A DNA stretch of 64,000 nt, taken from the IMG/VR virus record IMGVR_UViG_3300016471_001132, positions 1 through 64,000 of that record. The stretch is one strand, 5' to 3'. Below are positions 34,231 through 55,984 of the stretch, one piece after another; the stretch's first letter is position 1, and each line of letters begins with the position of its first letter. The stretch comes from a virus. The position numbers were made by a program, and so were the translations under genes. The notes below the pieces were generated by a model, which was given only the letters and a program-made list of their open reading frames with translations, was not told the DNA's origin and did not search any database.

Positions 34231-34470
34231 TTTCAATGAATGATATACTTCTGCTTGTTCTAGTAATTCTCTCAGCCGGGGATCGTTACGACTGGCTCTC
34301 AGTATTTCAATCCATTTGAACCAAAGCCTTTCATCCTCCATCTCCTGTCTTTTTTTGTCGGATATGGAATGGAGTGTTTTTTCTGTCGAGCCCGGTCTGC
34401 GCCGATAGACTGTTTCCCCGCCGTCAGGACTTTCGTAGATGTATTTTTCTTGTGTTTGGTTCACTTGCAT
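34219..34470 (-). CDS. hypothetical protein (83 aa)
   Basis: YIYESPDGGETVYRR motif; short overlap with the upstream gene. Confidence 0.7.
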   Translation of the reverse strand: MQVNQTQEKYIYESPDGGETVYRRRPGSTEKTLHSISDKKRQEMEDERLWFKWIEILRASRNDPRLRELLEQAEVYHSLKSQP

Positions 34471-35030
34471 CCTATGACCATGAATCTGGTATAAGGGGTT
34501 TCGGGATCTTGGAGATCCAATTCTCCTTGATACAAAACTTCCTGCATAGGGAATTTATCTAAGATATCCTGAGTGCTGTGAAATTGTTGGCCGGGGTCGT
34601 GGTCTCGGGCTTGTAGTGCTACTAGAGTACCCTCGGGTACATTGTCAAACCATTCACGTCCTGGCATGTCAGTGAGGCTGGTGTTGACCACTAGACCGTT
34701 CCGATCTAACTGTCTATAATCCAGATCATTAGCATCTGCTCGCATGTGATCCACGCAGGCGGCACCGATATGATCCAGCATGCGTTTACTCTGTTTCAGA
34801 AATTTGGGATTGGTTTCCACATTGATGATGCGCTCGGTCTTGACTGCAGGATGCAGCTTCATATATAGGCTGAGATTGCCAAACCATGATCCTAGAATGT
34901 ACACAGTGCTCACACGATCTTTTATTTTAGAAAGTTCTTGTAGCAACCAAAGTTTGCTCTTGGTAAGATCATGCGTAAAACTGCCCGGGAGGCTGTATCC
35001 GCTGCTTTCAGTGAGATCTCGGATCTTCAT
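34461..35030 (-). CDS. class I methyltransferase-like protein with a CTS-like N-terminus (MKIRDLTE)
   Basis: VYILGSWFG, INVE, DANDLDY, VVNTS motifs. Confidence 0.6.
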   Translation of the reverse strand: MKIRDLTESSGYSLPGSFTHDLTKSKLWLLQELSKIKDRVSTVYILGSWFGNLSLYMKLHPAVKTERIINVETNPKFLKQSKRMLDHIGAACVDHMRADANDLDYRQLDRNGLVVNTSLTDMPGREWFDNVPEGTLVALQARDHDPGQQFHSTQDILDKFPMQEVLYQGELDLQDPETPYTRFMVIGCK

Positions 35031-35098
35031 ACCGGGCTGAAGGGGTACCGGGCGCTGTCTGTGCCGTCATCCTCGGGCCATACAGGATATTCGTTCAT
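35027..35098 (-). CDS. 23-aa micropeptide (MNEYPVWPEDDGTDSARYPFSPV)
   Basis: ATGA overlaps at both ends. Confidence 0.45.
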   Translation of the reverse strand: MNEYPVWPEDDGTDSARYPFSPV

Positions 35099-35379
35099 AC
35101 ACCCGACGCGGCTATGGCCGCTCCATTGTTGAAACTTTGGCTCCAAGAGTTGGGATTCTTTCTTTTGCGTTTGTACCAGGCATAGCCAGCTCGATGTCCT
35201 GAACAATCCTTGGTGCAAGGGCTGCCGTGGAAAGATAATTCGTCTAGTTGCTCATCTTCGTTGTGTTTCTTCCTGCCTTGGCAATGAGCACGCTGGCTAA
35301 AGCCACGAGGCCGGGCACAGTTGATCGACCGTTTGTATTTTTCGGACCACTTTTCTGATACAAACTCTTTGGCTCTCAT
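35095..35379 (-). CDS. CTS-tagged small basic two-module protein (MRAKEFVSE)
   Basis: Two Cys-containing basic modules separated by EQLDE. Confidence 0.75.
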   Translation of the reverse strand: MRAKEFVSEKWSEKYKRSINCARPRGFSQRAHCQGRKKHNEDEQLDELSFHGSPCTKDCSGHRAGYAWYKRKRKNPNSWSQSFNNGAAIAASGV

Positions 35380-35480
35380 GCCAATGCCAATCTCTTTTTC
35401 AGTTCATTGAGAGCTGCAGTCAATGATTCTGCCATGATCTGATACACAGTTTCTCCAACAGTGAAGGTATAGTTTTTCAT
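35376..35480 (-). CDS. 34-aa microprotein, not in the ORF track
   Basis: MKNYTFTVGETVYQIMAESLTAALNELKKRLALA; ATGA overlaps at both ends. Confidence 0.5.
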   Translation of the reverse strand: MKNYTFTVGETVYQIMAESLTAALNELKKRLALA

Positions 35481-35737
35481 TTTTTCTTCGTCGCCACGTT
35501 GATGGCTGCTCCTTTTCTTTCTGGATTGGGATCTTGTCTACGCTTCCTTGCTGCTGCGGATGCTCGGCCTTTTTTGCCCAAGGCATGCGCTTTGCTTTGC
35601 GGCAGACACTTGGGTTTACCTTCCTTGCTGCTGCCACGGGCGCAAGGACCCATGATCTTGCCTTGGGGATTGAATCGTACCCATTTTTCACGGAACCATT
35701 TTTTTAGGTCTTCGGTGATGAATTCCTCAGCTCTCAT
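35477..35737 (-). CDS. CTS-tagged small basic protein (MRAEEFITE)
   Basis: DLKKWFREKWV...PC...KPKCLP; highly basic. Confidence 0.75.
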   Translation of the reverse strand: MRAEEFITEDLKKWFREKWVRFNPQGKIMGPCARGSSKEGKPKCLPQSKAHALGKKGRASAAARKRRQDPNPERKGAAINVATKKK

Positions 35738-37401
35738 TTTTTCTTTCCGCCGGTGCCCCAGTTTGCAGCACCTTTTTTACGGCATTGAACCAAAGCACCC
35801 GATGCGTAAGCGCTGGGCCATACTTTGTACCGGCTACGCACTTTGTGATAGCAGGCATCTTTGCCAGCCTCGTCGAGGATTATATTTTCATTTTCGTCGC
35901 GTCTGACAGCCAAACTCCGGGTCTCTCCCAGAGTGCCGGTCTTGGCCTGTGGTTGGAATGGCTCTTCTCCGTCCAGGGGAAGCTCTTTCTGCGGTCCTCG
36001 GCTGCGCCGACGGATATCTATCACATTAGATGGCACTGGTTCGGCAGTAGGCACAGATAGTGCAGTGGGTTCGGTTGATGGAGTGACCGTGGCAGCTGGA
36101 GCGATATCCAATTGAGGCTGGTCCAAAGGCAGTTGATCTCTGCTCTTGACAGAAGATTTTTTCGTGGCTGTTTTTTTCAGCGATGTTTTTTTGACTGCTG
36201 GTGCTGTGATTTGTGCCGCTGGTTGTCCTCCTACAGAAGGTCCTGCTGGTGCAGCAGTCACATCTGATCGTGGTTCAACAGCAGGTTCGATCTTGCTTGC
36301 TTGTTTGAGATCATTGATGGCTTTTTGTTGATCACGATCAACATCAAGGATCTTTTTTATCGCATCGCTTTGAGCTTGATTAGTGGCCTGTATTTGTTTG
36401 ACCATGGTGCTACTGGCACCTTTACGCCCTTGCAGTTGTGCCAGGCTTTTCCGGAGATCAGCTTTGACATCGGTTTCGAGATCGTCGATTTCACGCTCAA
36501 GCTTGTCTATATCTTGCTGATCTCGTTTGCGTTTGTCTTCTATATCGTAGGCCAAGGCTTCGATGTCACTGGTGGCCTGAGGCTGGCGTGCCCGTATCCG
36601 GGCGATCATTTTTTGGGTACGAGCAGTGGCATCGGCACCGCCGATCGACCCAGCAGCTACTTCACTCTTTTTTTTTACTTCGCTGGCTTCTCGGGTGTAC
36701 CGTGGTGCCTGGGTGCGGCTGCTTTGTCCGCCTAGGGCCACATCTCCGGATTGGCCTTCGAGTTGGTTCAGTAGATAATGTAAGCTATCGGGCTGTCCTA
36801 GGTTGAGCAAAAATTGTGGTAAAGCACCTTTTTTCTGATAACCAGCCGCCATCTGCAGTATTCGGTTTTTAACTTCAGGATCGTAAATCAAAAACTGCTC
36901 GTTGCTCATGTTGAAACGCAAAGGCCTACGGCTCATGCGTGCAAACTCTTTGTCTTTTTGCAGTACTGTCAGTATCAACGCGCCGCGATTTTCTGGGTTC
37001 ATTGAGGCAGGAACATCAACCTCTTGTTCGTCAAGAATTTCTTCTGATATAGGCTCGACCCGTCCATTGACAGTACGGGCATATTTTTCAGCCGACGCTT
37101 GATCTTGGAAAGCAGCGGTCGGCCGATTGGGCCTGGGATCGACGACCCGGTGTGTAAGTTTGGGTTGATTACCTTGCGGCTGTTGCGAAAGAGGCTCGAC
37201 TTGACCGCCTGTGCTCCGCGCATATGCATCAGCAGCAGCGCGATCCATGAACTGGCTGTTGCCCACTTGGAAGCGGAAGGCACCCTGGGGGCGCTCTTTT
37301 TCTACATCACGCATGGTGATATCGGGCTTGCCTTGCTGCCTACGGAGATAAGTGGGCATGTCGCTGGGTTTGAGTGCTTCAAAAATTTCGTCGAGGATCA
37401 T
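35734..37401 (-). CDS. modular putative internal head protein (555 aa, MILDEIFE)
   Basis: Modules separated by ILDE/LGE/ILDE; coiled coil; Pro/Ala linker; basic C-terminal Cys-pair module. Confidence 0.7.
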   Translation of the reverse strand: MILDEIFEALKPSDMPTYLRRQQGKPDITMRDVEKERPQGAFRFQVGNSQFMDRAAADAYARSTGGQVEPLSQQPQGNQPKLTHRVVDPRPNRPTAAFQDQASAEKYARTVNGRVEPISEEILDEQEVDVPASMNPENRGALILTVLQKDKEFARMSRRPLRFNMSNEQFLIYDPEVKNRILQMAAGYQKKGALPQFLLNLGQPDSLHYLLNQLEGQSGDVALGGQSSRTQAPRYTREASEVKKKSEVAAGSIGGADATARTQKMIARIRARQPQATSDIEALAYDIEDKRKRDQQDIDKLEREIDDLETDVKADLRKSLAQLQGRKGASSTMVKQIQATNQAQSDAIKKILDVDRDQQKAINDLKQASKIEPAVEPRSDVTAAPAGPSVGGQPAAQITAPAVKKTSLKKTATKKSSVKSRDQLPLDQPQLDIAPAATVTPSTEPTALSVPTAEPVPSNVIDIRRRSRGPQKELPLDGEEPFQPQAKTGTLGETRSLAVRRDENENIILDEAGKDACYHKVRSRYKVWPSAYASGALVQCRKKGAANWGTGGKKK

Positions 37402-38350
37402 GATTTTTTTCTTCTATATAATCTGCATTTTCCATCTGCCCACGGCGCCGGGCACAATACATTTCAACAGCCATTGTTGCTTCATCAAGATTCTTGAACT
37501 TTGCTTTAGATTCTTGGTTCTTGATAGTGATACGGAATCCATCGTCTTCGTTGCCGTGGATCTTGATCTCGTGACCGTCATCGGTCTTGAGAGTTTTTAC
37601 AGCAGGACCGATCTGGTCGATGTCTCGTTCCAGTTTATCTTTGAGGTCTGGATCCTTCTTTATCTCTTTAGTAAGATCCGAAAGATAGTCGCCCAGTTTC
37701 TTTTTAACTGAGGAAATCACATCTTCTGTGGTGGCAGCTGACTCTGCGAATGGCCTGCGGTCGTCCATCTCTTCTCGGCTGCCCATGCGATCATCCAAGG
37801 CATCTTTCACATACTGAACATAAGCTGAGATATCAGAGGACCCAATTTCTTCGAAATCGCCTTCACCTTCGGTGACATCATCGATGGCCTGCATCAATGC
37901 TTCTACGCCATATTTGACGATCCATTCGGGATGCTGATTAACGATCCTGCGGGTGACAGCCTGCGCCATGGGATTGGCATCCTGGTCTTCTTTGATGATG
38001 CCAGCATTTCTTGCGGCTAAATCTAGTGTGGCTAATCTTTCTTTGGCTGCAGCTTTGCTTTCTGTGTCCAATCCGGGTTGACTCAACATGCGGAACAAAA
38101 TATCACGCTTGTCGAGGTAATCTTTTTTGTCTTTGATGACATTGTACCCGCTTCGATTGAAAGAGACGACATCGCCTTCTTGCATCTCATCTTCACCCAC
38201 GAGATATCCCAGCGTGGCATTTTTTCCGGGATATGGTCCTGCTAACTGAGGAGAGGTATCGGCGGGTCGGAACAGGGCCGGCAACTGCTTGACCGACTTC
38301 TGTGCAGCGTCAAGATTTTCTAGGATGCGATAGATGTCGTGATCGCTCAT
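37379..38350 (-). CDS. modular putative internal head protein (323 aa)
   Basis: MSDHDIYRILE; internal MQE, IKE, FAE, LDE, YIEE motifs. Confidence 0.7.
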   Translation of the reverse strand: MSDHDIYRILENLDAAQKSVKQLPALFRPADTSPQLAGPYPGKNATLGYLVGEDEMQEGDVVSFNRSGYNVIKDKKDYLDKRDILFRMLSQPGLDTESKAAAKERLATLDLAARNAGIIKEDQDANPMAQAVTRRIVNQHPEWIVKYGVEALMQAIDDVTEGEGDFEEIGSSDISAYVQYVKDALDDRMGSREEMDDRRPFAESAATTEDVISSVKKKLGDYLSDLTKEIKKDPDLKDKLERDIDQIGPAVKTLKTDDGHEIKIHGNEDDGFRITIKNQESKAKFKNLDEATMAVEMYCARRRGQMENADYIEEKNHDPRRNF

Positions 38351-38787
38351 TCTCTGTTCTCTTTGAGGTAAGCTTTCATCTGCCAGGCATATTTGCCATG
38401 GCTCTCTTGACGCTCGGCGGCGAAATTAGCGATGTCTTCACGACCTTCTTGGCTGGCAGCATCAAACAATTGTTTGCTGAGATCGATCATGGTCTGTGTA
38501 TCCGCCAAAAGTTCTGTGAGCATAAGCCGTGCCCGGGGAACTTTGATTTGTTCAGTGATCAAGCTGAGTTCTTGGAAACGCTGCAGGCTACCCGGTGCAT
38601 ATTCACCGGTGGTGCGGATGAATTCAGCAGTCTTGTCGATGCTGTCTTGAGTGTCTTCGTAGACCTTAGACAGGAATTTGTGTAATTCACCAAAGTTACT
38701 GCCCTCCACATTCCAATGGAATCCCCAGGCCTTGGTGAAATAGGCATAACTTGTGCCTAAAAATGTTTTGAGATCATCTACCAGCAT
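38347..38787 (-). CDS. dps: Dps / ferritin-like protein
   Basis: FHWNVEG..F..LH..L...YE...D..AE.IR ferroxidase pattern. Confidence 0.85.
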   Translation of the reverse strand: MLVDDLKTFLGTSYAYFTKAWGFHWNVEGSNFGELHKFLSKVYEDTQDSIDKTAEFIRTTGEYAPGSLQRFQELSLITEQIKVPRARLMLTELLADTQTMIDLSKQLFDAASQEGREDIANFAAERQESHGKYAWQMKAYLKENRE

Positions 38788-38953
38788 TGCGTTTCCGTTT
38801 CTTTCCTGATTTAAAACTATTCATATATTTAGCAGGCCCGCTCAAACCCTGCCGCGAGATCATAGTGCCCAGAGGTTGGATTACAGGCGCCATGCTGCCA
38901 GCTACACTGGCCCCGGCAGACGCATCTTCACGCATGAATTCTCGGGCTCTCAC
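38774..38953 (-). CDS. CTS-tagged small basic protein (59 aa, GTG start, MRAREFMRE)
   Basis: GTGA overlap with the upstream stop; the track start at 39115 is in a different gene. Confidence 0.65.
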   Translation of the reverse strand: MRAREFMREDASAGASVAGSMAPVIQPLGTMISRQGLSGPAKYMNSFKSGKKRKRNAGR

Positions 38954-39255: not shown

Positions 39256-39450
39256 TTACTTGACTTCTTTGGGTTGTCCTACCAGCACATTGGGATTGAG
39301 ATACTGTGCCCGGATCACCCGCCTTGCCATTTCGGCATTGCGGGCCATCACAGTAGTGTCCATCTGCTGTGTATATCCTTTTTGCTGCAGTTTAAGCCTC
39401 ACTCGGTAGGTCTTGAGAGGTGGACGAGTTTGGAATTCCTGAGCTCGCAT
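39256..39450 (-). CDS. small basic protein with a CTS-like start (MRAQEF)
   Basis: Same ATGCGAGC.CAGGAATTC start as 47593..49047. Confidence 0.7.
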   Translation of the reverse strand: MRAQEFQTRPPLKTYRVRLKLQQKGYTQQMDTTVMARNAEMARRVIRAQYLNPNVLVGQPKEVK

Positions 39451-39451
39451 A

Positions 39452-39955
39452 CTAGAACACCGGGGGAGGGGGCAAGTTGGGAGGTCCCGGGGGAGCAGAA
39501 CTCACTGGTGCCACTCCTGGTGGGGGAGGCGGAGGAGGCATCCCAACAGGTGCAGCTGGTGCAGCAGGTTTGAATGCAGGTGGTGCCACAGATGCAGTGG
39601 ATGTGGGTGCGGGAGACACAGGTCTAGCGTTGGGCACAGCACCAGCAGCAGCATCCAAGGCCTTGGCTTTGAGATCTTTGTCGTTGCCGGCCAACATGAT
39701 GCCCGACAGGGTACCAGTCAAGAATGTGGCTATGGGTATGATCAGCTCAAAGAACTTCTGGTCGATGGGGCTGATAGCGTTGAGAGGCTGTGTGACGAAG
39801 ATGATGCTGTACAGAACAACAAACACGATGCCCACCAAGGTCAGTGCCAGACAGATGCCTATGAAAAACTTGAGGCGAGCCATCAACTGTTCTTCGGTGT
39901 ACATGAAAAACGGTTCGGGTTGTTTGTCTTTGTCGAAAGGGTTGGGTAGGTTCAT
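39452..39955 (-). CDS. 2-TM membrane protein with a Pro/Ala-rich tail
   Basis: Two hydrophobic helices; poly-Pro C-terminus. Confidence 0.75.
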   Translation of the reverse strand: MNLPNPFDKDKQPEPFFMYTEEQLMARLKFFIGICLALTLVGIVFVVLYSIIFVTQPLNAISPIDQKFFELIIPIATFLTGTLSGIMLAGNDKDLKAKALDAAAGAVPNARPVSPAPTSTASVAPPAFKPAAPAAPVGMPPPPPPPGVAPVSSAPPGPPNLPPPPVF

Positions 39956-40236
39956 TTACAAGCGACTCCTGTGGTAGAAGGGGTTGGCACGGCTGGTTTC
40001 GCTGCAGCCGAGGCTGGTGTGTCACTGGGTGGTCCCAGTCTCGGGTCTCGTTGACCCTTGAATATGTGCTCGGGGCAGGTGCGAGTGACATCACACAAGG
40101 GTTTTTGGCATTGTGGGCTGTCCCAGTTGGCTGGATCCTGGCAAGGGTAGCGGAAACTGTCACCGCCGAAGATGGCCAACATCAGCGGTACGAAAATCAG
40201 CAGGCCCAACCATTTGAATAGTTTTTTATCGTTCAT
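39952..40236 (-). CDS. small exported Cys-rich protein; start revised to MNDKK at 40236
   Basis: SD AGGAG; N-terminal TM/signal; FRYPCQDPANW...CQKPLC...C. Confidence 0.7.
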   Translation of the reverse strand: MNDKKLFKWLGLLIFVPLMLAIFGGDSFRYPCQDPANWDSPQCQKPLCDVTRTCPEHIFKGQRDPRLGPPSDTPASAAAKPAVPTPSTTGVACK

Positions 40237-40259
40237 TGCGTTAGGTGCTCCTATGCCAA

Positions 40260-40265
40260 TATTTA
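40260..40265 (-). promoter_or_regulatory. TAAATA late-promoter-like motif
   Basis: Immediately after the terminator, upstream of the SD of 39952..40236. Confidence 0.5.
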
Positions 40266-40268
40266 GCC

Positions 40269-40297
40269 AAAACAAAGCCCGCCAAAGTGACGGGCTT
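40269..40297 (-). terminator. intrinsic terminator
   Basis: AAGCCCG-TCACTTTGG-CGGGCTT followed by TGTTTT, after the stop at 40318. Confidence 0.75.
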
Positions 40298-40317
40298 GTT
40301 ACGCAAATAGGCGTACT

Positions 40318-40818
40318 TTATTTGTTGGCCAAGGGATTGTCCAAGGCTTTCTTGATCTTGTCATCCACTTCTTTCCTGACTTCACGCAGCTCATTGCGGA
40401 CTTCTTTGACATCTTGCATGGTCTCTCGCTGTGTCTGCTTGGCACCACGCTCCACTGAATCCACTGTGTTTTCCAGCCTGCGTATATCGCCTTTGAGATC
40501 GTTCTTGATGTTGTTGGTGTACTCAGTGGCCTGCTCGGCCTGCTTGGTTATCACAGCCAGCCGCTTGTCAAATTCACTGAGATCTGGTGCCACATACTCG
40601 GCGATACGCTTCTTCATGCTGGTGTAGTCTTTGTAGACTTCAAAAGCACCATACAAGCCGCCCAAGATGGAACTTATGATGGTGGCTGCCACCATGAGTT
40701 TGGCCGGCGTGAACTCGTAGCCACCTATAGAGATCACTGTGTCCTTGCTGGCATACTTCTTGACCGCTGCATCCATGGCATCGATGTGCTTGTTTACATC
40801 TTTGATTTCTTCACCCAT
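40318..40818 (-). CDS. single-TM coiled-coil protein (166 aa)
   Basis: TM segment LMVAATIISSILGGLYGAF followed by heptad repeats. Confidence 0.75.
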   Translation of the reverse strand: MGEEIKDVNKHIDAMDAAVKKYASKDTVISIGGYEFTPAKLMVAATIISSILGGLYGAFEVYKDYTSMKKRIAEYVAPDLSEFDKRLAVITKQAEQATEYTNNIKNDLKGDIRRLENTVDSVERGAKQTQRETMQDVKEVRNELREVRKEVDDKIKKALDNPLANK

Positions 40819-40972
40819 TTTCCTGCTCCTTTATTTGTTTAAGACCCAGTGGATCCCATATTTTCTTTTTTTCTACCTTTTTCGGTTCGTAATGGAAGTA
40901 CAGTATGTAATACAGTACCGCAAAACACTCCAGTATCACGAACACAAAAAATGATTCCATTATCAATGACAT
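40811..40972 (-). CDS. 53-aa single-TM protein, not in the ORF track
   Basis: MSLIMESFFVFVILECFAVLYYILYFHYEPKKVEKKKIWDPLGLKQIKEQENG fills the AT-rich gap. Confidence 0.55.
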   Translation of the reverse strand: MSLIMESFFVFVILECFAVLYYILYFHYEPKKVEKKKIWDPLGLKQIKEQENG

Positions 40973-40986
40973 GATTATTTTTCTTG

Positions 40987-43978: not shown

Positions 43979-44011
43979 TTTACAGTCTAGCTCCTTAGGC
44001 TAACTCAAGTT

Positions 44012-44017
44012 TATTTA
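44012..44017 (-). promoter_or_regulatory. TAAATA late-promoter-like motif
   Basis: Upstream of SD AAGGAG for 43352..43978. Confidence 0.5.
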
Positions 44018-45385: not shown

Positions 45386-45431
45386 TTAGAGTGGGTGGAG
45401 GTTGCCGCCTCGCGACCCGCACTATTACTTA
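45386..45431 (-). promoter_or_regulatory. structured leader hairpin of the HNH gene with a TAAGTA motif
   Basis: GGGU-CGC-GAGG-CGGCAA-CCUC-C-ACCC then ACUCUAAC; TAAGTA at 45426-45431. Confidence 0.4.
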
Positions 45432-45802
45432 TCGCGGAACAAGCGATTTATCCGAGCGATAGGATCTTCTTCCGCAGTTTCTTCCAAGGCGGCTTCCGAC
45501 TTGAAATATTTTTTGCCGAGAGATACCACATGGTCATCGTTGGCTCTTCGGATGGCTTCCATGCTGTTTTCAGCCGAAGCAATATAGTCATAAACTTCTT
45601 GTTTGAATTTGGGGAAGTTGGGATGCCCTTCCATCTTTGTACCTGGTGATTTTTGATTCAACTGCCTGATGGTGGAAGCAGCGACCTCTTTTGGAGTAGT
45701 GCCTGCGTTGACACGATTTTTCAAGAATGAACCGATGATACCTTCCGCCACACCTTGCTCGGCGGATTCGATAAGATTGATGTATTCGCGAAGTGTTTTC
45801 AT
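45425..45802 (-). CDS. CTS-tagged modular protein (125 aa, MKTLREYINLIE)
   Basis: QGVAEG and ALEE linkers bracket an insert module. Confidence 0.75.
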   Translation of the reverse strand: MKTLREYINLIESAEQGVAEGIIGSFLKNRVNAGTTPKEVAASTIRQLNQKSPGTKMEGHPNFPKFKQEVYDYIASAENSMEAIRRANDDHVVSLGKKYFKSEAALEETAEEDPIARINRLFRDK

Positions 45803-45808: not shown

Positions 45809-47596
45809 TTATTTATCCTTCCTTGCTTTGCCACGCCGCATGTTGAGTTGCCATTGTGCCATCCTGCGACGCTCGCCTGTGCTGCTCTTGGCTATCTTTT
45901 CCAGTTGGCCCAGCGTGGCTTTCTTGGGTATGCCCACTCTGCGACTCAGACCCTTGCGGCCAGGTTTCTTGCCATCTGCGAAATTTTCATCCAATGATTG
46001 TTTTTTAGCATAACGATTGGCCCAATTTGTATAACCATTGAAAGTATCAAAGGTTCCTTGACGATCTCGTAAGAATCGTTGTTCGGGCTTGGGTATTTTC
46101 CACACAGCAATGGGTTTCATCACGCCATAGTTAACAACATTCATATATCTTTGCATGAGATATTGTAGTGTCTGTGGTTTAAGTTTACTGATCAACCATT
46201 TGCCAGCCATGGCTATGGTTTCAAAACTTACATTGGGTTTAGATAACTCTGCTTTAAGATCCTCGGGTATGCCTTGAATCAATGCCGACAAGTTAAGCGG
46301 AAGATTTTTTGCCTTAACAAATTTTTCTAGCAGTCTTCCTAATTCATCCTCATCTGGCGATGTTTGTGAAAGACTCTTACCTGAAAATTCAAACACATAA
46401 CCATAGGGTTCTTGTTTGATATAATCAGCATATTGTTCATCTGGAACATCGCTCATAAAACTATATCTCACAGCGTTGCCAAACTCTTTTGACAGATACA
46501 CTCCTGGCAACGGAGAAAAGTTTTTACTTCCTTTGTATTTTTGTGCAATTAGTTCGGGATCAAACTTCAACCCATTTCTCATGATTCCTTGAGCATTGCT
46601 CAAACTAGGAGTTCCGTGATAAAGTGTAGAGGATTGGACCGAAATTGGTGGGGGTGCCATTTCTTTGACCCGACCATCGGCGAAGTTTTCGCCCATTTCT
46701 GCCTCCCAGACCTCCTTGCCTTTCCAGTGCCGGCGGCCCGCATCAGTCTGATTAGCGTTGGGCACGATCCGGCCCAGTTGAGACTTGGCGAAATCATACA
46801 TCACACGGGCGATGCCTTGGCCACGATAGCGTTCATCCACCTGGAGTTCTTCGCCTTCCCAACCATGACCAGTGTCAGTGAAGTAACCGCTGCCTAACTC
46901 GCGTTCGCCCGTGCCATCCATGGCAGTGACATACAGGGTTTTACCATCATCAGAATATTCGTACTGGATGTTGAGACCATCTTGGCTGGCTCGGGCTTCC
47001 GCAACCACAGGCTCGTCCATGAAATCGCTCAAGGGATCCACTATCACGAGTTGTCCGTTGGCACGCTGCATGATGTTGGCCACATTGCCGAGATCGTACT
47101 CATATTTGTCTGCTCGGCCACTGCCATACAGTTGATCCACGGCCTGGACCAAGCCATCCACTTGTTGTGCTGTCAGTCCTGCGGGCACCTGATCCAAGTC
47201 GGGATATTCACCGCGACCCATCTTGGCCATGGCCTGTTCCAGATAGTCTAGTACTGCTTGGTCACCGGGCAAGGAATACAGTCGTTCTTGTGTGTACATA
47301 TAGTAGGTTTTGCCGTTCCAACGCAGGGTCTTGTCTACACCCACTCGGGGAAAGTGTGGATTGCGTTGATGCTCACGGAAGAAGTTGACATATCTACGCA
47401 CCACATCTTGTCTCACATCGCTGCCCTGTCCCACTATCTTCAACACGGTGCGGCTGCCGGGCTTGGACATCACGATCTGATCGCGACCTTCGCCGTCGAT
47501 CTCCCAGCCCCGATCGGTGAATCTTTCGATGAGATCAGGATCCACCGTGAGTTCACCGGCGGCATTGACTTCGGAGATGAAATCTCGGGCTCTCAT
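45809..47596 (-). CDS. CTS-tagged polyvalent protein: kinase-like + GNAT + ADP-ribosyltransferase-like + basic tail (595 aa); start revised to MRARDFISE at 47596
   Basis: VLKIV...DLGNVANIM...LVIVDP; VDERYRGQGIA...QT..G; LYHGT...GVYLS...RY; ENFADG twice. Confidence 0.75.
   Translation of the reverse strand: MRARDFISEVNAAGELTVDPDLIERFTDRGWEIDGEGRDQIVMSKPGSRTVLKIVGQGSDVRQDVVRRYVNFFREHQRNPHFPRVGVDKTLRWNGKTYYMYTQERLYSLPGDQAVLDYLEQAMAKMGRGEYPDLDQVPAGLTAQQVDGLVQAVDQLYGSGRADKYEYDLGNVANIMQRANGQLVIVDPLSDFMDEPVVAEARASQDGLNIQYEYSDDGKTLYVTAMDGTGERELGSGYFTDTGHGWEGEELQVDERYRGQGIARVMYDFAKSQLGRIVPNANQTDAGRRHWKGKEVWEAEMGENFADGRVKEMAPPPISVQSSTLYHGTPSLSNAQGIMRNGLKFDPELIAQKYKGSKNFSPLPGVYLSKEFGNAVRYSFMSDVPDEQYADYIKQEPYGYVFEFSGKSLSQTSPDEDELGRLLEKFVKAKNLPLNLSALIQGIPEDLKAELSKPNVSFETIAMAGKWLISKLKPQTLQYLMQRYMNVVNYGVMKPIAVWKIPKPEQRFLRDRQGTFDTFNGYTNWANRYAKKQSLDENFADGKKPGRKGLSRRVGIPKKATLGQLEKIAKSSTGERRRMAQWQLNMRRGKARKDK
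45810..45815 (-). promoter_or_regulatory. TAAATA late-promoter-like motif
   Basis: 7 nt before the ATG; overlaps the upstream stop. Confidence 0.5.
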
Positions 47597-49047
47597 GCGG
47601 CCGCTCCGATCCAGGCGTTGATCTTGAATCCTTCGGGATTCAGCCGGAAAGCAGCCATAGTCCTGTGCCAACCTTCCACCAGTTCTAATCCGTTGGGGTG
47701 TTGCAACATGATCACTGGGGGGAGATTCTCCATGCCCTTGGCCTTGACTAATTCTATGGCCTGCTCCAAGCGTTCACGATCTCTGGGTATCATGAAGGGA
47801 TTTTTATTGCCAAAGTCTCGTTTGATCTTCATGCGATATCTAGTAGTAGGATCCAGCATATCGAAAGTCAAAGGCATCCGCTGCACCAACCGCCATTGAT
47901 CCGCCATGGTAGCCAACTCACGCACATGATCCAGTTTCAGTTCGAGATCCTGTGGTGACTTGATCTTGGATATCACCATATCTTTTAGCACATAGTCGGG
48001 CCAACCTGGTAATTCATCTCGCAGGATGTCCATGACACCACGCTGCACTTCTGTGATACCTGATCGCTTGCGTTCCCAAACAAATACGGTCATGTCTCCG
48101 GGCACGATCGTCAACTGCCACTGATCGCCCAGGATGTCTTGGATCACTGGCACGAAATATCGCTTGTACAGCTCGATGCGGCTGGCACCTTTGGCTGTAA
48201 ATGTGACCCGGGGTGGGCGTGCTGACTTCATGTACTGGGGTAACTGTTCGCGGACGATGTTCAGCACAGTGCTGAGGATGCGTATCACCGATCCACTGGC
48301 CTTTGTGGGCCGGGGTGGTGCTTCGTAGTTTTGATTCACTGTGAATGTGATCTGTAGGCTGTCATTGATAGGGCTGCGGTCAAAGAACACATCCACCCAT
48401 TGGCTGTCTACTGTGGCATGAAACAGGCTACGCCGCCTGCGACGATTGGGCTCATACTCGCTGGGTGAGTCACCTATCTCGTTCAGCGTACCCCTCACAC
48501 GATCAAAGAATGTGGGGTTGGGTGCACCCTTGACCTCGCCATGTCGTTTATGTTGTCCAGCATAGTCATAATAGCGACCCACCACATCAAACGCAGGCTC
48601 AAAGAACACTGCTTGTGGTGTGAGCCCACCTTTGAGTATGCCCACACGACGCTTGCCTGGGGGTGCGTCTCGGACCTCTCGAGGATCTCTATGCCCGATG
48701 GGCTGTAACCAAGCATCGGGTCGTTTCTTGACCAACCACACATAGGGAAAGTCCATGGCATATTCGCCCTGTGACATCATGCTGAGATAGGTTCGCAAGG
48801 GATAGAACCACAAAGCCCTGCGGCCACCTCCACGACTGCTTGTACCTATGCTCGAGACTGAGAAACTGGGATCATCGATTTCCACATGCCGCTTGAACTT
48901 CTGCCGATCGCTGAAACCTATTTTATCTACTTCGGTGAAACGCACGAAGTAGTCCCGGGGATCACCACCGTGTTGACGCACGGCATCCTGTATCTGTCCA
49001 CGGATGCTGGCCGCCTTACGCTCGGTGATGAATTCCTGTGCTCGCAT
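47593..49047 (-). CDS. CTS-tagged three-module protein (484 aa) with a C-terminal ParB/Srx-like module
   Basis: MRAQEFITE; LNE and ITE junctions; PPVI...LVEGWHR motif. Confidence 0.7.
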   Translation of the reverse strand: MRAQEFITERKAASIRGQIQDAVRQHGGDPRDYFVRFTEVDKIGFSDRQKFKRHVEIDDPSFSVSSIGTSSRGGGRRALWFYPLRTYLSMMSQGEYAMDFPYVWLVKKRPDAWLQPIGHRDPREVRDAPPGKRRVGILKGGLTPQAVFFEPAFDVVGRYYDYAGQHKRHGEVKGAPNPTFFDRVRGTLNEIGDSPSEYEPNRRRRRSLFHATVDSQWVDVFFDRSPINDSLQITFTVNQNYEAPPRPTKASGSVIRILSTVLNIVREQLPQYMKSARPPRVTFTAKGASRIELYKRYFVPVIQDILGDQWQLTIVPGDMTVFVWERKRSGITEVQRGVMDILRDELPGWPDYVLKDMVISKIKSPQDLELKLDHVRELATMADQWRLVQRMPLTFDMLDPTTRYRMKIKRDFGNKNPFMIPRDRERLEQAIELVKAKGMENLPPVIMLQHPNGLELVEGWHRTMAAFRLNPEGFKINAWIGAAA

Positions 49048-49785: not shown

Positions 49786-49820
49786 TTAACTCTCTCTGAT
49801 AATATCTCATTAATTCTCAT
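49782..49820 (-). pseudogene. 12-aa CTS-only stub ORF MRINEILSERVK
   Basis: Copy of the 5' end of gene 50287..50757; its TGA overlaps the oxygenase ATG. Confidence 0.5.
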
Positions 49821-49867
49821 CTCTTCCAAACTTTGTTCTTGTAGGCCAGGAACTGCTTGAATTGTTC
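49801..49867. repeat. 67-bp direct repeat, copy 1
   Basis: 61/67 identical to 50738-50804 by manual alignment. Confidence 0.9.
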
Positions 49868-49874: not shown

Positions 49875-50285
49875 CTAATCCTTGGAGACAGGTCCGCCTT
49901 CGACCCAAGCATCACAGGTGCGCTTGGCAGCACACTTGAATTTCAGGAACTTGCAGTAGCCCAACTGTCCAGCGTCGATGGTGTCGTGGGGATCACTTCC
50001 AGGTTCACTGCCGATGCCCTTGGCTATGCAATCCAGCATGTCGGGGCTGATGTCAAAGGCCGCACAGTTGCCGCAGCGATTCTGTTTCACTGATTCGATA
50101 TCGTCGGTGTTCCACTTGTCGGCCAACTTCTGCCAGTATTCTTCGTTGGGTTCGTTGGGATTGAGAGGACCATAATGATATTCGTCTATGGCCTTCTGGC
50201 GATTCTCCAGATTGAGATCGATGTTCTGCGTGGCGGGTGGGCAGCCTTTTTCGATGGCTTCCAATAGGTTGATTATGTCTCTCAT
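49875..50285 (-). CDS. CTS-tagged Cys-rich (probable metal-binding) protein (136 aa); start revised to MRDIINLLE at 50285
   Basis: CPPAT, RCGNC..F, C..L.FKCAAKRTC.AW motifs. Confidence 0.75.
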   Translation of the reverse strand: MRDIINLLEAIEKGCPPATQNIDLNLENRQKAIDEYHYGPLNPNEPNEEYWQKLADKWNTDDIESVKQNRCGNCAAFDISPDMLDCIAKGIGSEPGSDPHDTIDAGQLGYCKFLKFKCAAKRTCDAWVEGGPVSKD

Positions 50286-50286: not shown

Positions 50287-50757
50287 TTATCCACCATGCA
50301 TGCCTTGCTTGATGATGTGTCGGAGATCGCCCAAGGCCTCTTCTTCAGTGTCATAGCCACTGTTGTCCTTGCCCGAAGCATAGTGCCGCATGTAGTATTG
50401 ACCAACACCGGCACTGGATTCTCTGTCGATACCGACTTCGCCCACGGGCTGGCCTTTGTGTTTGACGATCTTGCGTTGTTGATCGGCATGACCTTCCTGC
50501 ACAGGTTTGATTGGTCCACGCAAGGTATCTATGAGTTCACCCCCAAAATCGGGGTCTCTCATGATGGCACGCACCCGGATGTCGCTCATGCCCATGCGTA
50601 GGAGTTCACGAGCAGCATCACTGAGTATGTCATCTTCCGAGGCCTTCAGATAACTTTTACCAGGATTGTTGTCCAGCATGGCTCTGCTGACCTGATATAT
50701 GGTGTTGTCTTGGCCTTCCGCCACACCTTGTTCTACTAATATCTCGTTGATTCTCAT
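50287..50757 (-). CDS. CTS-tagged two-module protein; start revised to MRINEILVE at 50757
   Basis: QGVAEG and VQEG linkers; ATGA overlap. Confidence 0.75.
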   Translation of the reverse strand: MRINEILVEQGVAEGQDNTIYQVSRAMLDNNPGKSYLKASEDDILSDAARELLRMGMSDIRVRAIMRDPDFGGELIDTLRGPIKPVQEGHADQQRKIVKHKGQPVGEVGIDRESSAGVGQYYMRHYASGKDNSGYDTEEEALGDLRHIIKQGMHGG

Positions 50758-50804
50758 CTCTTCCACACTTTCTTCTTGTAGGCCAGGAACTGTTTGAACT
50801 GTTC
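50738..50804. repeat. 67-bp direct repeat, copy 2
   Basis: Spans the junction between genes 50754..51158 and 50287..50757. Confidence 0.9.
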
Positions 50805-51158
50805 CAGGGTTGATTCATACTTGGCCAGCATCTCGGCCATCTCACTATCGGTCCGGGGCACGGGCCAAGCACGGATCACATCCAAGTCTGCTTCGATGCC
50901 GGGATCCATGCCCAGTCTTGTGCGGCCGATGCGTTCGGCCGTTTTCTCTATCATGTTGGCCACTGCCAGGATTTTTTCCAGCCTGCGGATCTCTGCTTGT
51001 AATGTGGCCAAGTCCTTGCCAGGGGCAGCAGGCACAGGAGCCACTGATATCTGTGCCACTTGTTCGCCGGGCTGATTCATGGCCTGTTTGATCTGCGTGA
51101 GAGCAGCCATGGCTCGATCTGTCAGTGGTGCTTCTGTAAGTATTTCTTGTACTCTCAT
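50754..51158 (-). CDS. CTS-tagged helical protein (134 aa, MRVQEILTE)
   Basis: Coupled to the 1608-aa gene (TAATG). Confidence 0.75.
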   Translation of the reverse strand: MRVQEILTEAPLTDRAMAALTQIKQAMNQPGEQVAQISVAPVPAAPGKDLATLQAEIRRLEKILAVANMIEKTAERIGRTRLGMDPGIEADLDVIRAWPVPRTDSEMAEMLAKYESTLEQFKQFLAYKKKVWKR

Positions 51159-54100
51159 TATCTCATCTCCGGCACTACTTCTGCTTCGTTGCCCAGCGTG
51201 CCTTGTCTATAACCTTGTTGTGCCAACCAGCGAGCAGCATATCTGTTGGCATCACTTTGCGAATTGCCTATGCCGTGGAATCTGGTAAGTTCACGCCCTT
51301 CAGCATCTCGCACGATCCAGTGGCCGGTCCACTCGCCCGGTGGCACATCAAGCCTGGCACGCACATCGTCAGCGTCTTGATTGTCATCTCTCTGCTGTTG
51401 GTTCTGTTGGCGTATGCGTTCCTGATCCATGCGATAGGTCTCGATCTCTTGTTGATCGGCCAGCCTGGCTCTGGCATCCTCATGACCAAAGTCGCTGTCT
51501 ATCATGGCGGCTTTTTGGATGGCTTCGGCTTGACTACGGGCCACGATGTTCTTTATCTTGCTGTGAAAGTTCACACGCCACAGTTGCTCGCCCACATCCC
51601 GGGTGCTGCGAGTCACACGCTTGGCCAACTCGGCTCTACGGCTGGGGGGTGCTTTGGGTTTTTTTGGTTCTTGGTGCACACGCACTTTCCACGTTGGATT
51701 CTGTGGTCTGAAGTTCGAATTGAAATATTTGATCGCTGCTTCGTCATCTTCGGCGTGGAATACACTGATCACGTTGCCAGATTCTGGGTCGTAGACATCA
51801 TAGTCTTTGTCGATGAAGGGAGGAATATCCTCTTCTTGCTCTGCATCCTGTTCGGCTCGCAGCACAGTTTCAGCCCACTGGCGCTTGAGTTCATCACCCG
51901 AGATGTAACCGGTGGAGTAGTCAGCGAACAATCGCATGAAAGGATCCTCGTCTTCGGTCTCGATACGGGTCTGGAATCTGGTATCCTTGGCACCTTTGGC
52001 TATCTCGGCACCTTTGTAGCCCGACAGCATTTTGTAGAGTTTCTTGGCATATTCTTTACGGTGCAGTTCGGGACTGCCGGCTATGCTCATGGCATAGGCC
52101 AAGCGTAACATGGTGTTTTCCAAGGTGCCTTCGATCTCGCTTTCTTTAGAGAGATAGTCTCCGCCAGGACCGCGGAACTCGATGTAGCCATCGTGTGGAT
52201 TCACGCTCACATACTTTTCGCCCAGCACACCACGCTGGAGTTCACGGTCGGCCAACTCGATGAGATTTTTCTTCATCAGTTCCATAACACCCGCGATCTG
52301 CTTGGGACCGGCTCTTTTCATGCTGGAGATCTTGTTTTGCAGTCGTTCGTAGGCGGACCGGGTGTAGTAGTTGCTGGCCCGGTCGAACTTGTCCAGCAGG
52401 TCCCGGTCGCCCATGAACAGGATCAGTTTGATGGGATCCACATCTCCGCCCTTGAACGGCAGACTCACGCCCATGTGCAGGCCGGTACTGCTGTTGGTAT
52501 AAGCATCACCGGAGCCATTGGCCCAGTCTATGACCTTGTTCAGTTGCTCGATGGCTTCAGGCAAGGGCATGGGAGGTGATACGATCTCCAAGCCGTAGTC
52601 TTCCGAGTCATCGGCATCCAGGCTGCCATCGGGTTCGATCACATAATAATCGCCACGACGGGTGCCGTGATAGCCCGAGCTCACACGCACATCCAGGCCA
52701 GTGGCACGCTCCAGGCTGTTGGCGATGTCCCGCCATTCACGCTCGCCACCATTGCCACCGCCTTCGGTCCAGTAGGGCCATTCCAGGCTCCACTCGTTGC
52801 TGACATCACTCATGTAGCGCATGCCCGAACTATCTAGCCAATCGGCTTGGTCGGCTTCGGCAGCATATTCGTCATAGAGTTCTTCCCTAGCACGGTCATA
52901 CCAGTCGCCACTGCGATCCCAATCACGCTCGGCATCGTCACGGAACAGTTGAACGGCCTGCTTTTCCAGTTCTTCATCTGAGATTTCTTCGTCGCCCAGG
53001 GCATCACGGGCCTGCTCTCGATATTCGTCGTCGACTTCGGGCCAGATGTTGTCATCGACCCAACTCATGTATCGATCCATGTCAAAGTAGTTTTCGATGA
53101 AACTGTCGTTGACCCAGTCATAGAACTGTTCAGTCAAATCTTGCGACAAGCGATCGGCCGCTCGGGCCGAAATACCATTGTCGCCGCCACGGAAGAAGTC
53201 GATGATTTCTTGGATGCTGGATGCACGCTCGTCCATGTCCCAGTCGGGCTCGCTCTCGCCACCGTCGCCGTCGTGCTGGGTGTCGCGGAATATGAGTTCG
53301 GCCTCGAAGCCAGCACGGATACCCTTGGCAGCATCACTGTTGAGGAATTTTTTGAACGCCGATGGACTCATCTCTACTTCCATGAGATCTTCATCTTCAG
53401 CAAGGCTTTCTACACTGAATGGACTCATATCTTCTACTGGAATAATTTTGGCTGTGATGGCAGGTTGTTTGGTCAGGATGGCTTTATGTGCCCTATGCGT
53501 TCCGTCAGCGATCCATAAACTACCATTCTTCCGTCGAACCACGATAATGGGATACTTGAGATCGGCTTTTGCCACTCGAGATTGCGATTGTGCAGGGTCT
53601 TCTTCGCGACCAACAATTTGGTCGTGGAACTGCGTAGGATCGACTTTTTCAGTTGGATATTTTGCAGCAAAATCTACTAAATCTTTTATGTTGAAACGGA
53701 ATGATTCGCCATCAATACCAATACCTGCAGTTTGATCCAGGCCAGATCCTTCCGACACTTTCACACAGTTGGGAACCTGGCGGTCGCCCTTCCGTTTCAT
53801 ACCTTGTTGTTTGTATCCTGACCAGCAATCTTCGTCGGTCTTGACGCTCTCTAATAGATTGTTCAACTTCTTCATCAGCAGCGGAGGAACACCAGCGGCG
53901 TCGGTCTTGAATCCCATCTTCCGAGCCTGGCGTTGGATCTCACCTGGTTTTATATCCTGCGTGATGGCCATGCTATATCTTGGATCTCGCGCTTCTCGGT
54001 CGTCGATGGGAATGTAGCCGGTGGCTTCGTTCACAGGCTGTTCACCAGCAGCACGGATGTCGGGTATGGGCAAGCGTGTGGGTTGATCAGTGTGACCACC

Positions 54101-55984
54101 TTGACGACGCAGCCAGTTATGGAACTCTTGCGCAAATTCAGCCTTGACATCAGGAGAACGAAGTTGACTGGCACCATAGATCCAGCGAGCGGCATTCAAG
54201 ATCTTGGCAGCAGTCACAGGCTCTTGTGGTTGTGCTGTAGGCTCTTGTGCCTGTACGAAACTGGCAGCAGCAGCGAACACAGCGGTCAACAAGGCTTTGG
54301 ACACTGCACCTTCGGCCACTTGGCCCTTCATCTTCATCACTGCCGCAAAGCTAGTCAGGAACTGCTGTTCGGCTTTGGAGAGAGGACGACCCATGCGGGC
54401 TTTGCCCTGTAAGAAGTCATAGTACTGTTTGATGTGCCGGGGATCTTGGCTTACAGGAGTCTGGATGGCTTCGTCTAGTTCACCGGCAAATATCTCAGGA
54501 TGATGCTCGCGGAAGTCACGCATGATGCGACCGGCTAGAGCGTTGGCCTCGTCTTCGAATCTGCTGCCAGTCTCACCACCATCGGCTGGAATACCTTCGC
54601 GCTCTTCTTGGTGATGATGCACCAGTTCGTGTGCTAATGTACGCATGACATCGGCCATGTGTCGTCCAGCCACACTGACTTCTAATGTATTATTGTCAGG
54701 ATCATAATGACCGAATGTGCCATTGACTTGGCTCCATTGTGGATCTCGGCGTATTTTGATTTTGGGACACGATTCGATTCCTAGTTTATCACAAACATAT
54801 TCTGTGAATTTTTGCAAGATAGACGCCGAGCTCTGCTGCTCGTCCATCCGGTATTCCGCTTCAGGATCTTTGTTCTTGGCTCGGCGATCTATATCCAGGG
54901 TCTTCATGCCCAAGCGGTCTAGATCCTTCTTGTACATGTGTTCGATAGGCTCGCTACCAAAACTCAGCACAGTTTGCGGAGCACCTTTGCCATAGGCCTT
55001 GGGGTCAGCATGTTTGAGATCGCTGATATCCTGTCCCAGTTTGTACCAATCATAAACATCACTTACATTGACCAATATTGTACCTGCTGGCATCTCGGGT
55101 TTGAACTCAGGTCCAGGTGGTTCAGCATTGGGATCATAATCTTCTTTCGTGCTTTCGCCACCACCATCACCACCGCCATCTGTGGCAGCATCACTACCAC
55201 CATAATAATGATAGCCTGGGAACCAGTAAGCACCATAGCCGTAACGGGTTTTCTTCTTTTTGGTTTTGCGCTCGTCAAGGCTCATCATCGAGTCTTTGGC
55301 TTCTTTTCTGGCATCACGTAGTTTTTCTAGTGTACCGTTGCCACGAAGTATTTTGAATGCTAGATTCTCCGGGCCAAACTCGCCAGTGGTCTCCAATCCA
55401 GCCTGCCGCATCTCTCGGATCTTGGCAGCCATTGCGTCCATCCGGCCAAGATCACCACTCTTGATGGCTTGTTCTATGCGTTGCCCTATGTCTTCGTATT
55501 TGCTCCGGACAGAGATATCATCCACTGTGGGCCGGCGGCGTGCAGGGACCTTGATCCAGTCATTGTTGAGGACCGAGTAGATGCCTTGGCTCACATGCGG
55601 CTGGTTGGCGTTTTGCACATACAGCTCTACATCGTAGCCGCCGATCTTGTAGTCGTGCTGATCGTTATATTGGTACTTTTTGGCATCAAAAAGCTCGCGG
55701 TAGACATCGCTGGCATCAGCTCGAGGTAGGTCTACCACCAGATGCAAATCGATGTCCGAATGTGGTGTATATGTGTAAGCAGCGTTTGATCCAGAGATCG
55801 TTATATCTTTGATCTCGAGATCGGTGATGCCCAGGCTTTCGCGGAAATCATCTGCTATCTGTAGAAGCTTTTGCCGCACTTCGGGCAAGAGATGTTCATC
55901 TGAACCCCACAGTCGGGGGTTCAGATTATCATTGAATTTTACAGCGTCGGAAAGACGATAGGTTTCTAACTCACGGAGGTCCAT
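51158..55984 (-). CDS. 1608-aa polyvalent protein: Pol-beta nucleotidyltransferase, HExxH peptidase, basic micro-modules, ParB-like module, putative amidoligase
   Basis: ISGSN...SDIDLH; HELVH; CWSGY...VPNC; YPIIV...IADGTHR; GFEAE...EPDGSL...LEIVSP...TGLHM...IEFRGPGG. Confidence 0.8.
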   Translation of the reverse strand: MDLRELETYRLSDAVKFNDNLNPRLWGSDEHLLPEVRQKLLQIADDFRESLGITDLEIKDITISGSNAAYTYTPHSDIDLHLVVDLPRADASDVYRELFDAKKYQYNDQHDYKIGGYDVELYVQNANQPHVSQGIYSVLNNDWIKVPARRRPTVDDISVRSKYEDIGQRIEQAIKSGDLGRMDAMAAKIREMRQAGLETTGEFGPENLAFKILRGNGTLEKLRDARKEAKDSMMSLDERKTKKKKTRYGYGAYWFPGYHYYGGSDAATDGGGDGGGESTKEDYDPNAEPPGPEFKPEMPAGTILVNVSDVYDWYKLGQDISDLKHADPKAYGKGAPQTVLSFGSEPIEHMYKKDLDRLGMKTLDIDRRAKNKDPEAEYRMDEQQSSASILQKFTEYVCDKLGIESCPKIKIRRDPQWSQVNGTFGHYDPDNNTLEVSVAGRHMADVMRTLAHELVHHHQEEREGIPADGGETGSRFEDEANALAGRIMRDFREHHPEIFAGELDEAIQTPVSQDPRHIKQYYDFLQGKARMGRPLSKAEQQFLTSFAAVMKMKGQVAEGAVSKALLTAVFAAAASFVQAQEPTAQPQEPVTAAKILNAARWIYGASQLRSPDVKAEFAQEFHNWLRRQGGHTDQPTRLPIPDIRAAGEQPVNEATGYIPIDDREARDPRYSMAITQDIKPGEIQRQARKMGFKTDAAGVPPLLMKKLNNLLESVKTDEDCWSGYKQQGMKRKGDRQVPNCVKVSEGSGLDQTAGIGIDGESFRFNIKDLVDFAAKYPTEKVDPTQFHDQIVGREEDPAQSQSRVAKADLKYPIIVVRRKNGSLWIADGTHRAHKAILTKQPAITAKIIPVEDMSPFSVESLAEDEDLMEVEMSPSAFKKFLNSDAAKGIRAGFEAELIFRDTQHDGDGGESEPDWDMDERASSIQEIIDFFRGGDNGISARAADRLSQDLTEQFYDWVNDSFIENYFDMDRYMSWVDDNIWPEVDDEYREQARDALGDEEISDEELEKQAVQLFRDDAERDWDRSGDWYDRAREELYDEYAAEADQADWLDSSGMRYMSDVSNEWSLEWPYWTEGGGNGGEREWRDIANSLERATGLDVRVSSGYHGTRRGDYYVIEPDGSLDADDSEDYGLEIVSPPMPLPEAIEQLNKVIDWANGSGDAYTNSSTGLHMGVSLPFKGGDVDPIKLILFMGDRDLLDKFDRASNYYTRSAYERLQNKISSMKRAGPKQIAGVMELMKKNLIELADRELQRGVLGEKYVSVNPHDGYIEFRGPGGDYLSKESEIEGTLENTMLRLAYAMSIAGSPELHRKEYAKKLYKMLSGYKGAEIAKGAKDTRFQTRIETEDEDPFMRLFADYSTGYISGDELKRQWAETVLRAEQDAEQEEDIPPFIDKDYDVYDPESGNVISVFHAEDDEAAIKYFNSNFRPQNPTWKVRVHQEPKKPKAPPSRRAELAKRVTRSTRDVGEQLWRVNFHSKIKNIVARSQAEAIQKAAMIDSDFGHEDARARLADQQEIETYRMDQERIRQQNQQQRDDNQDADDVRARLDVPPGEWTGHWIVRDAEGRELTRFHGIGNSQSDANRYAARWLAQQGYRQGTLGNEAEVVPEMR

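Follow-up and report, generated by a model that had tools for sequence, protein, structure and literature searches.

Genes of the cargo locus

We analyzed a 64-kb window of viral DNA, the first 64 kb of the 136-kb IMG/VR record IMGVR_UViG_3300016471_001132 (CheckV completeness 39%), in which a series of genes between 34 and 56 kb begins with similar short peptides, here called leaders. The long open reading frames (ORFs) of the contig lie nearly all on the minus strand. Its B-family DNA polymerase (31087-33744) has 45-50% identity with the polymerases of the jumbo phages Atu_ph07 and Phosso and 42% with that of the Rak2-like group, and it matches more than 2600 T4-superfamily records. The same polymerase is 79-84% identical in three near-complete uncultured contigs (G002, G004, and G005), of which G005 measures 352,754 bp and has terminal repeats. 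An uncultured freshwater jumbo phage belonging to the T4 superfamily is the source of the window. Upstream of the DNA polymerase gene lies a hypervariable cargo locus, which was highly rearranged among relatives when G002, G004, and G005 were compared, and no DNA common to the 34-56 kb block and any cultured phage was found.

An initial annotation of the window had proposed that about 15 genes of this block share a T4-like capsid-targeting N-terminus. All 15 N-termini are present on the minus strand, at the gene starts listed below. A shared leader is upheld for about 11 of them and fails for four, one of which is a duplication relic and one a gene with a decayed leader, while the supposed leaders of the other two are not conserved. 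The strict pattern referred to in the list is defined in the next section, and phi denotes a hydrophobic residue.

34461..35030, minus strand: 189-aa gene with the short variant leader MKIRDLTE
35095..35379, minus strand: 94-aa basic gene with leader MRAKEFVSE, a strict match, and a W-S-x-K-Y-K module
35477..35737, minus strand: 86-aa basic gene (isoelectric point, pI, 11.2) with leader MRAEEFITE, a strict match
35734..37401, minus strand: 555-aa gene with the variant leader MILDEIFE
37379..38350, minus strand: 323-aa gene with the listed start MSDHDIYRILE, unsupported as a leader
38774..38953, minus strand: 59-aa basic gene with a GTG start and leader MRAREFMRE
39256..39450, minus strand: 64-aa basic gene with a decayed leader, in which MRAQEF is kept and the phi-x-E end is lost
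45425..45802, minus strand: 125-aa gene with the T4-like variant leader MKTLREYINLIE, followed by a Q-G-V-A-E-G joint
45809..47596, minus strand: 595-aa multi-module cargo gene with leader MRARDFISE, a strict match
47593..49047, minus strand: 484-aa cargo gene with the canonical leader MRAQEFITE, a strict match
49795..49867, minus strand: duplication relic with a 12-codon MRINEILSE ORF (listed as 49820), not a gene
49875..50285, minus strand: 136-aa Cys-rich gene with the variant leader MRDIINLLE
50287..50757, minus strand: 156-aa gene with leader MRINEILVE and a Q-G-V-A-E-G joint directly after it
50754..51158, minus strand: 134-aa gene with leader MRVQEILTE, a strict match
51158..55984, minus strand: 1608-aa polyvalent-type protein with no detachable leader

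A leader peptide at the starts of unrelated genes

A strict pattern, M-[RK]-[AIVTL]-x-[DE]-[FIL]-[ILVMF]-x-E, was drawn from the listed N-termini and applied to the whole 136-kb contig. Seven of 3078 minus-strand ATGs and none of 2689 plus-strand ATGs matched, relative to a chance expectation of about 0.05 matches estimated from residue frequencies. All matches fall between 35 and 51 kb and each is the start of an ORF, and the GTG start at 38953 provides an eighth strict leader. These minus-strand starts have the form M-R-[A/I/V]-x-[D/E]-[F/I]-phi-x-E, which occurs in none of the other approximately 180 ORFs of the contig; the scan thereby confirmed that the motif is absent from the genes at 8-33 kb, as had been claimed. 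Counts of the eight-residue body of the motif directly after a start codon were 8 in the contig, 7 in G005, 4 in G004, and 4 in G002; counts of its internal occurrences, with all six frames read, were 3, 9, 9, and 9, respectively. Scores from a position-specific scoring matrix (PSSM) were bimodal, with an empty gap between the leader class and noise.

Beyond the strict class, leader variants are supported by homologues in four genes (starts at 35030, 37401, 45802, and 50285). Variants were judged in this way because a loose regular expression returned mostly false positives and the PSSM was too tight to recover them.

The DNA upstream of the leaders is not conserved, and codon choice varies from gene to gene. 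When the first 12 residues were cut off, 14 proteins had no pairwise BLAST similarity at E < 0.01, in line with the initial claim that the leaders precede unrelated bodies. A census in IMG/VR, made by back-translation of the exact nonapeptide MRAQEFITE, located it at 66 loci, encoded by 31 different 27-mers. All 66 matches start open frames, which have at least 59 codons except for two (36 and 26 aa) that are cut at locus ends. The MRINEIL-x-E variant gave 83 matches in IMG/VR, 82 of them open, representing 29 families; the estimated chance expectation is below one match for MRAQEFITE and about three for MRINEIL-x-E. In 1.06 Mb of related phage DNA, 139 strict-leader ORFs make up 27 body families. 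Since MRINEIL-x-E heads homologues of the 484-aa and 595-aa proteins, the leader subclasses are interchangeable on one body. The leader is under selection at the level of the peptide.

Likeness to the T4 targeting sequence

The T4 leader MKTYQEFIAE, to which the N-termini had originally been likened, was read directly in the T4 record, where ipII and ipIII both begin with it. The T4 tag and the leader have Q-E-F-I-x-E in common and each ends in phi-x-E, while the leader is one residue shorter, with R-A replacing K-T-Y. In T4, the initial ten residues of IPIII are enough for encapsidation; targeting depends on residues 4 and 7 of the tag and processing on residues 8 and 10, and Asp at position 10 blocks cutting and leaves targeting unaffected (PMC9026906). 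Among 53 dissimilar leader proteins, Phe6, Ile/Val7, and Glu9 of the leader, which are equivalent to Phe7, Ile8, and Glu10 of T4, are near-invariant, and by residue 10 the information content is at background. Genetic work in T4 ties these same positions to targeting (Phe) and processing (Ile and Glu).

The likeness extends to the cargo. In T4 and here, the tag is fused to unrelated, often basic proteins, and the genes occupy a polymorphic locus at a distance from the head module. The internal proteins (IPs) of T4 are basic, and several of the small cargo proteins of the window, together with a tail that begins N-F-A-D-G, are very basic (pI 10-11.9). About 11 tagged genes occupy one 22-kb block here, known from sequence alone, versus three IPs in T4, and the suggestion of a repertoire larger than that of T4 thus holds by gene count. 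Unlike in the T4 IPs, several leader subclasses coexist, and cargo may be 500-600 residues long, with multiple modules and internal joints.

The internal-protein loci of T-even phages are polymorphic and tagged with a capsid-targeting sequence (CTS), as is established (PMC3012670; PMC9026906), and the CTS may be a general loading route for varied proteins in T4-like phages (PMC9026906). New in the present system are its lineage, how many genes are tagged, leader subclasses that coexist, modular polyproteins with fixed joints, and a tie to polyvalent-type proteins. A literature search on the leader and joint strings found no top-ranked paper that contains them, in a ranking swamped by an unrelated word. 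T4 itself has a further protein of similar start, the 54-aa hypothetical gp61.1 (NC_000866.4 18966-19130, L108), whose N-terminal decapeptide has three mismatches to the ipII/ipIII tag and ends in I-K-E.

Modules and their phi-x-E junctions

The same cargo domains sit behind leaders or inside longer proteins, linked by short phi-x-E joints, a regularity additional to what the initial annotation had described. At distinct junctions that lack a strict leader, [LIVM]-x-E stands directly before the W-S-x-K-Y-K module in 6 of 6 cases, before the module of the 86-aa gene in 7 of 7, and before the basic N-F-A-D-G tail in 11 of 13. In its other contexts the module of the 86-aa gene is preceded by L-E-E, L-D-E, V-P-E, or M-E-E, and the conserved domain of the 189-aa gene follows L-T-E, L-K-E, L-Q-E, or L-E-E at all four distinct junctions. 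Over all contexts, phi-x-E was found at the boundary in 34 of 73 and at control offsets of 2, 4, 6, 8, and 9 residues in only 0-1 of 73; the boundaries were set from leader ends in one genome, and offset 0 is therefore favored for closely related copies.

One joint of six residues, Q-G-V-A-E-G, was found two to four times per genome, confined to genes of the variable block. One domain stands after MRAQEFITE-G in G005 and after Q-G-V-A-E-G in G004. The 1608-aa protein has one G-Q-V-A-E-G joint near residue 560 and modules in common with the cargo pool; its residues 368-499, with the metallopeptidase-like module, form a stand-alone leader-tagged protein in L065. As modules recur after leaders and joints alike, the two behave as equivalent boundaries bearing the cleavage signature of the T4 prohead protease, gp21.

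Individual proteins of the locus and its surroundings

Searches for the function of the cargo returned few matches. The 484-aa protein had no match in Pfam, PHROG, or PDB sequence searches, and the 134-aa protein had no family match in Pfam or PHROG searches. The G002 orthologue of the 484-aa gene also has a leader, and one homologue bears the MRINEILVE variant instead. The start of the 595-aa gene overlaps its upstream neighbor by ATGA. Its product contains two internal phi-x-E/N-F-A-D-G joints, at residues 303 and 537, and has a basic tail (pI 11.9), with a weak match to GNAT in Pfam and to the NleH kinase in PDB. Modules of this protein recur after leaders on other contigs.

Four of the listed proteins have variant leaders whose relatives are informative. 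For the Cys-rich 136-aa protein, 365 relatives were found in IMG/VR, and all 23 N-terminal variants observed have Glu9, mostly with an aromatic residue at position 4; in L020 the domain stands after canonical MRAQEFITE. A homologue that is 56% identical and annotated as a high-potential iron-sulfur protein is encoded in Actinomycetia phage DSL-LC01 (OQ999401.1 63051-63785), where three genes for capsid maturation proteases and the major capsid gene lie immediately 3' of it. L146 and L147, proteins otherwise unrelated to the 125-aa protein, begin with its first 21 residues. The MILDEIFE leader of the 555-aa gene is kept before the first module in three relatives, while in L235 an internal Q-G-V-S-E joint precedes this same module. 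The fourth, the 189-aa gene, was described above.

Other members of the family of the 59-aa gene have different leaders that still end in phi-x-E. The 59-aa protein aligns to residues 36-94 of the major capsid protein of G005 (L082:6300-6600; E 6e-7 in a single comparison), and the end of its leader overlies the likely L-K-E maturation site of the capsid protein. From this alignment, the 59-aa protein may be a mimic of the capsid N-arm. In the family of the 64-aa gene, members at L036 and L044 bear an intact MRAQEFITE.

The three remaining sites were not accepted as leader genes. The relic at 49795-49867 is a 73-nt direct repeat, 89% identical to 50732-50804, in which the 3' terminus of the 134-aa gene and the leader of the 156-aa gene are duplicated; it looks like the footprint of cassette recombination at a leader boundary. 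The N-terminus MDLRELE of the 1608-aa protein was rejected as a leader, as it is conserved as part of the first domain and its Glu7 is replaced by Asp in two of three orthologues. The start at 38350 was likewise rejected, the supposed cut-site Glu being Gln in the G005 orthologue.

The cargo locus also contains genes of other kinds. A stretch encoding signal-peptide, lipoprotein, and membrane proteins on the minus strand (39452-45373), including a secreted protein of 799 aa, divides it in two and holds an HNH endonuclease gene (44714-45373, minus strand). A Dps/ferritin-like gene (38347-38787, minus strand; Pfam Ferritin, 3e-18) lies inside the cargo block, has no leader, and is kept in G002, G004, and G005. 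A perfect 12/12 sigma-70 consensus promoter (34109-34138, minus strand) is located just 5' of the small gene preceding the polymerase gene, and a strong intrinsic terminator (40275-40297, minus strand) follows a 166-aa gene.

At least two further leader-like genes are found on the same contig outside the cargo block, both beyond the window. The first (86255-86836, minus strand) encodes a protein that resembles superoxide dismutase by eye and has an 11-residue leader-like extension ending in L-I-E; judged from this extension, its product is possibly a packaged superoxide dismutase. The second (118732-119079, plus strand) encodes a small protein in which a leader-like dodecapeptide ending in L-D-E is followed by a twin-arginine (Tat) signal.

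Probable loading of the cargo into the phage head

The motif, its N-terminal restriction, peptide-level selection, the unrelated bodies, the co-occurrence with gp21, and the junction rule were computed directly. Taken together with the T4 precedent, they make it likely that the cargo is handled as in T4, being loaded by means of the leader, cut after Glu by the prohead protease, and delivered with the DNA, with polyproteins split at their joints. The capsid-targeting interpretation of the initial annotation is supported by every computational test run for about 11 of the 15 sites and does not apply to the four discussed above. We infer docking, cleavage, packaging, ejection, and a role of the cargo in the host. 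The leader would dock the cargo protein onto the scaffolding core during prohead assembly, and a gp21-type prohead protease would then cut after the last Glu of phi-x-E. Mature cargo would remain in the head until it passes, together with the DNA, into the next host. Polyproteins are probably split by this protease as well, at Q-G-V-A-E/G or x-phi-x-E/N-F-A-D-G linkers, the slash marking the predicted cut.

A protease of this type accompanies the leader in related phages. In two sets of five large leader-bearing contigs, Peptidase_S77 (gp21) scored above the Pfam cut-off in four and in all five (9 of 10 in total), among them relatives whose polymerases are 79-84% identical; the single contig without it is 76% complete. 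In G005, the protease gene (224562-225188) is found amid portal, acidic 275-aa, scaffold-like, and major capsid genes. The most abundant leader family (121-133 aa, 68 members) has two tandem copies at 263 kb in G005, close to an ORF resembling the large terminase; a search for homologues of its 123-aa protein in cultured phages found none.

Comparison with three known systems places this handling in context. Alt of T4 is a packaged ADP-ribosyltransferase that gp21 cuts at ITE-6 and LTE-619 (PMC5694885). This enzyme is a large cargo; its very short N-terminal propeptide, which ends in phi-T-E, is comparable to the eight-residue leaders at 35030 and 37401, and its second, internal cut to the joints described here. 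As Alt loses six residues and is cut again at LTE-619, the eight-residue variants and internal cuts proposed here have a precedent. In contrast to Alt, no Alt-family ADP-ribosyltransferase domain was detected here by Pfam, and the joints part exchangeable modules, whereas the internal cut of Alt removes a C-terminal propeptide.

The polyvalent proteins of phages and conjugative elements are long chains in which enzymatic domains of disparate kinds are joined, and their entry into the host along with the DNA has been predicted (Iyer, Burroughs, Anand, de Souza, and Aravind 2017, PMC5512222). For comparison, modules of the 1608-aa protein resemble amidoligase, nucleotidyltransferase, and metallopeptidase domains, of which Amidoligase_2 scored above the Pfam cut-off and NTP_transf_2 and the metallopeptidase family, as well as KleA, below it. 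A term search of PMC5512222 did not find 'capsid targeting', and as judged by this search the paper does not tie polyvalent proteins to a T4-type leader or to phi-x-E joints. Unlike in the description given there, the same modules here also occur singly behind a leader, which suggests that they are loaded and split by the head machinery.

The inner-body and ejection proteins of phiKZ and SPN3US are cut by the prohead protease at S/A-x-E (PMC9026906; PMC5694885). As in these jumbo phages, many head-internal proteins would here be processed after Glu by a gp21-related protease. The phiKZ and SPN3US propeptides differ in being mostly longer than 100 residues and without a shared short leader, their P3 residue is small rather than aliphatic, and the phages belong to another lineage.

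Several observations weigh against head loading and delivery of the cargo. Function searches with the cargo in Pfam, PHROGs, and PDB sequences gave almost nothing. The contig of the window, being 39% complete, contains neither gp21 nor gp23 nor any head gene, and the presence of gp21 in this phage is therefore deduced from relatives, among which co-occurrence was counted without a matched set of leader-free jumbo contigs. The setting of the junction boundaries, noted above, tells in the same direction. Most leader genes are remote from the head module (approximately 54-74 kb versus 224 kb in G005), which is true also of the ip genes of T4. The late promoter TATAAATA was not found in the window, where sigma-70-like sites and terminators are at background, save for the one promoter and one terminator mentioned above; when a shared promoter was sought by k-mers, repeats in the fiber genes swamped the result. 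Finally, the leader system was found in no cultured relative, with one leader-like start each in Atu_ph07 and Phosso (hypothetical genes) and none in CBB.

Cleavage at phi-x-E could also take place without packaging. The polyproteins would then be cytoplasmic, with the leader acting as a propeptide and the joints as processing sites. In the infected cell they would be cut by the phage protease, or else by the metallopeptidase module that the 1608-aa protein contains; one purpose might be to hold toxic enzymes inactive until they are needed. The junction rule points to a likely cut site and not to a location, the 1608-aa protein has a HExxH-type module (the metallopeptidase match below the Pfam cut-off), and autoprocessing of polyvalent proteins by metallopeptidase-type domains has been proposed by Iyer et al. 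(PMC5512222). Against this, phi-x-E is the specificity of gp21, which in T4 works inside the prohead (PMC5694885), the leader keeps the T4 targeting residue Phe besides the cut site, and most leader-bearing loci lack the metallopeptidase module. We therefore regard processing without packaging as unlikely.

It is quite improbable that the leader is instead a tag for another machine, such as a ClpXP N-terminal degron, a signal for export, or a sequence recognized by a modifying enzyme. The contig does have ORFs with ClpP- and ClpX-like N-termini, judged by eye with no family search, and one of its leader-like N-termini precedes the Tat signal described above. A degron or export tag leaves unexplained that internal phi-x-E joints are interchangeable with the leader, which has neither a hydrophobic core nor a signal-peptidase site and directly matches the experimentally mapped tag of T4. 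A radical-SAM partner was rejected, as the contig has three such genes, at 72, 101, and 109 kb, none of them in or adjoining the locus.

A functionless by-product of cassette recombination or duplication at gene boundaries, to which the junction duplication at 49795-49867 and the rearrangement of the locus among relatives would lend themselves, is very hard to reconcile with the absence of common upstream DNA, varied codons and 31 DNA versions of one peptide, conservation that ends exactly at Glu9, and retention of the motif on dozens of unrelated bodies and hundreds of contigs.

Implications for jumbo phages of the T4 superfamily

Loading through a T4-type leader may be part of a plug-and-play arrangement, an extension of head loading that we put forward tentatively. 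Any domain flanked by phi-x-E could be placed after a leader or in a polyprotein, and the head protease would act as an 'unpacker' that separates it into individual injected effectors. Such a system would account for the rapid shuffling of modules among relatives, and polyvalent proteins in jumbo phages of the T4 superfamily would thereby have a defined route of loading and maturation. Both the leader and the Q-G-V-A-E-G joint are short and portable, and they could be used as building blocks where several proteins are to be loaded into phage heads.

If the cargo is loaded and delivered as proposed, the injected proteome of a large group of uncultured freshwater jumbo phages is recognizable by a nine-residue peptide, and dozens of candidate early effectors and anti-defense proteins could be listed from sequence alone. 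Polyvalent proteins would in turn become linked to the head-loading pathway of T4.

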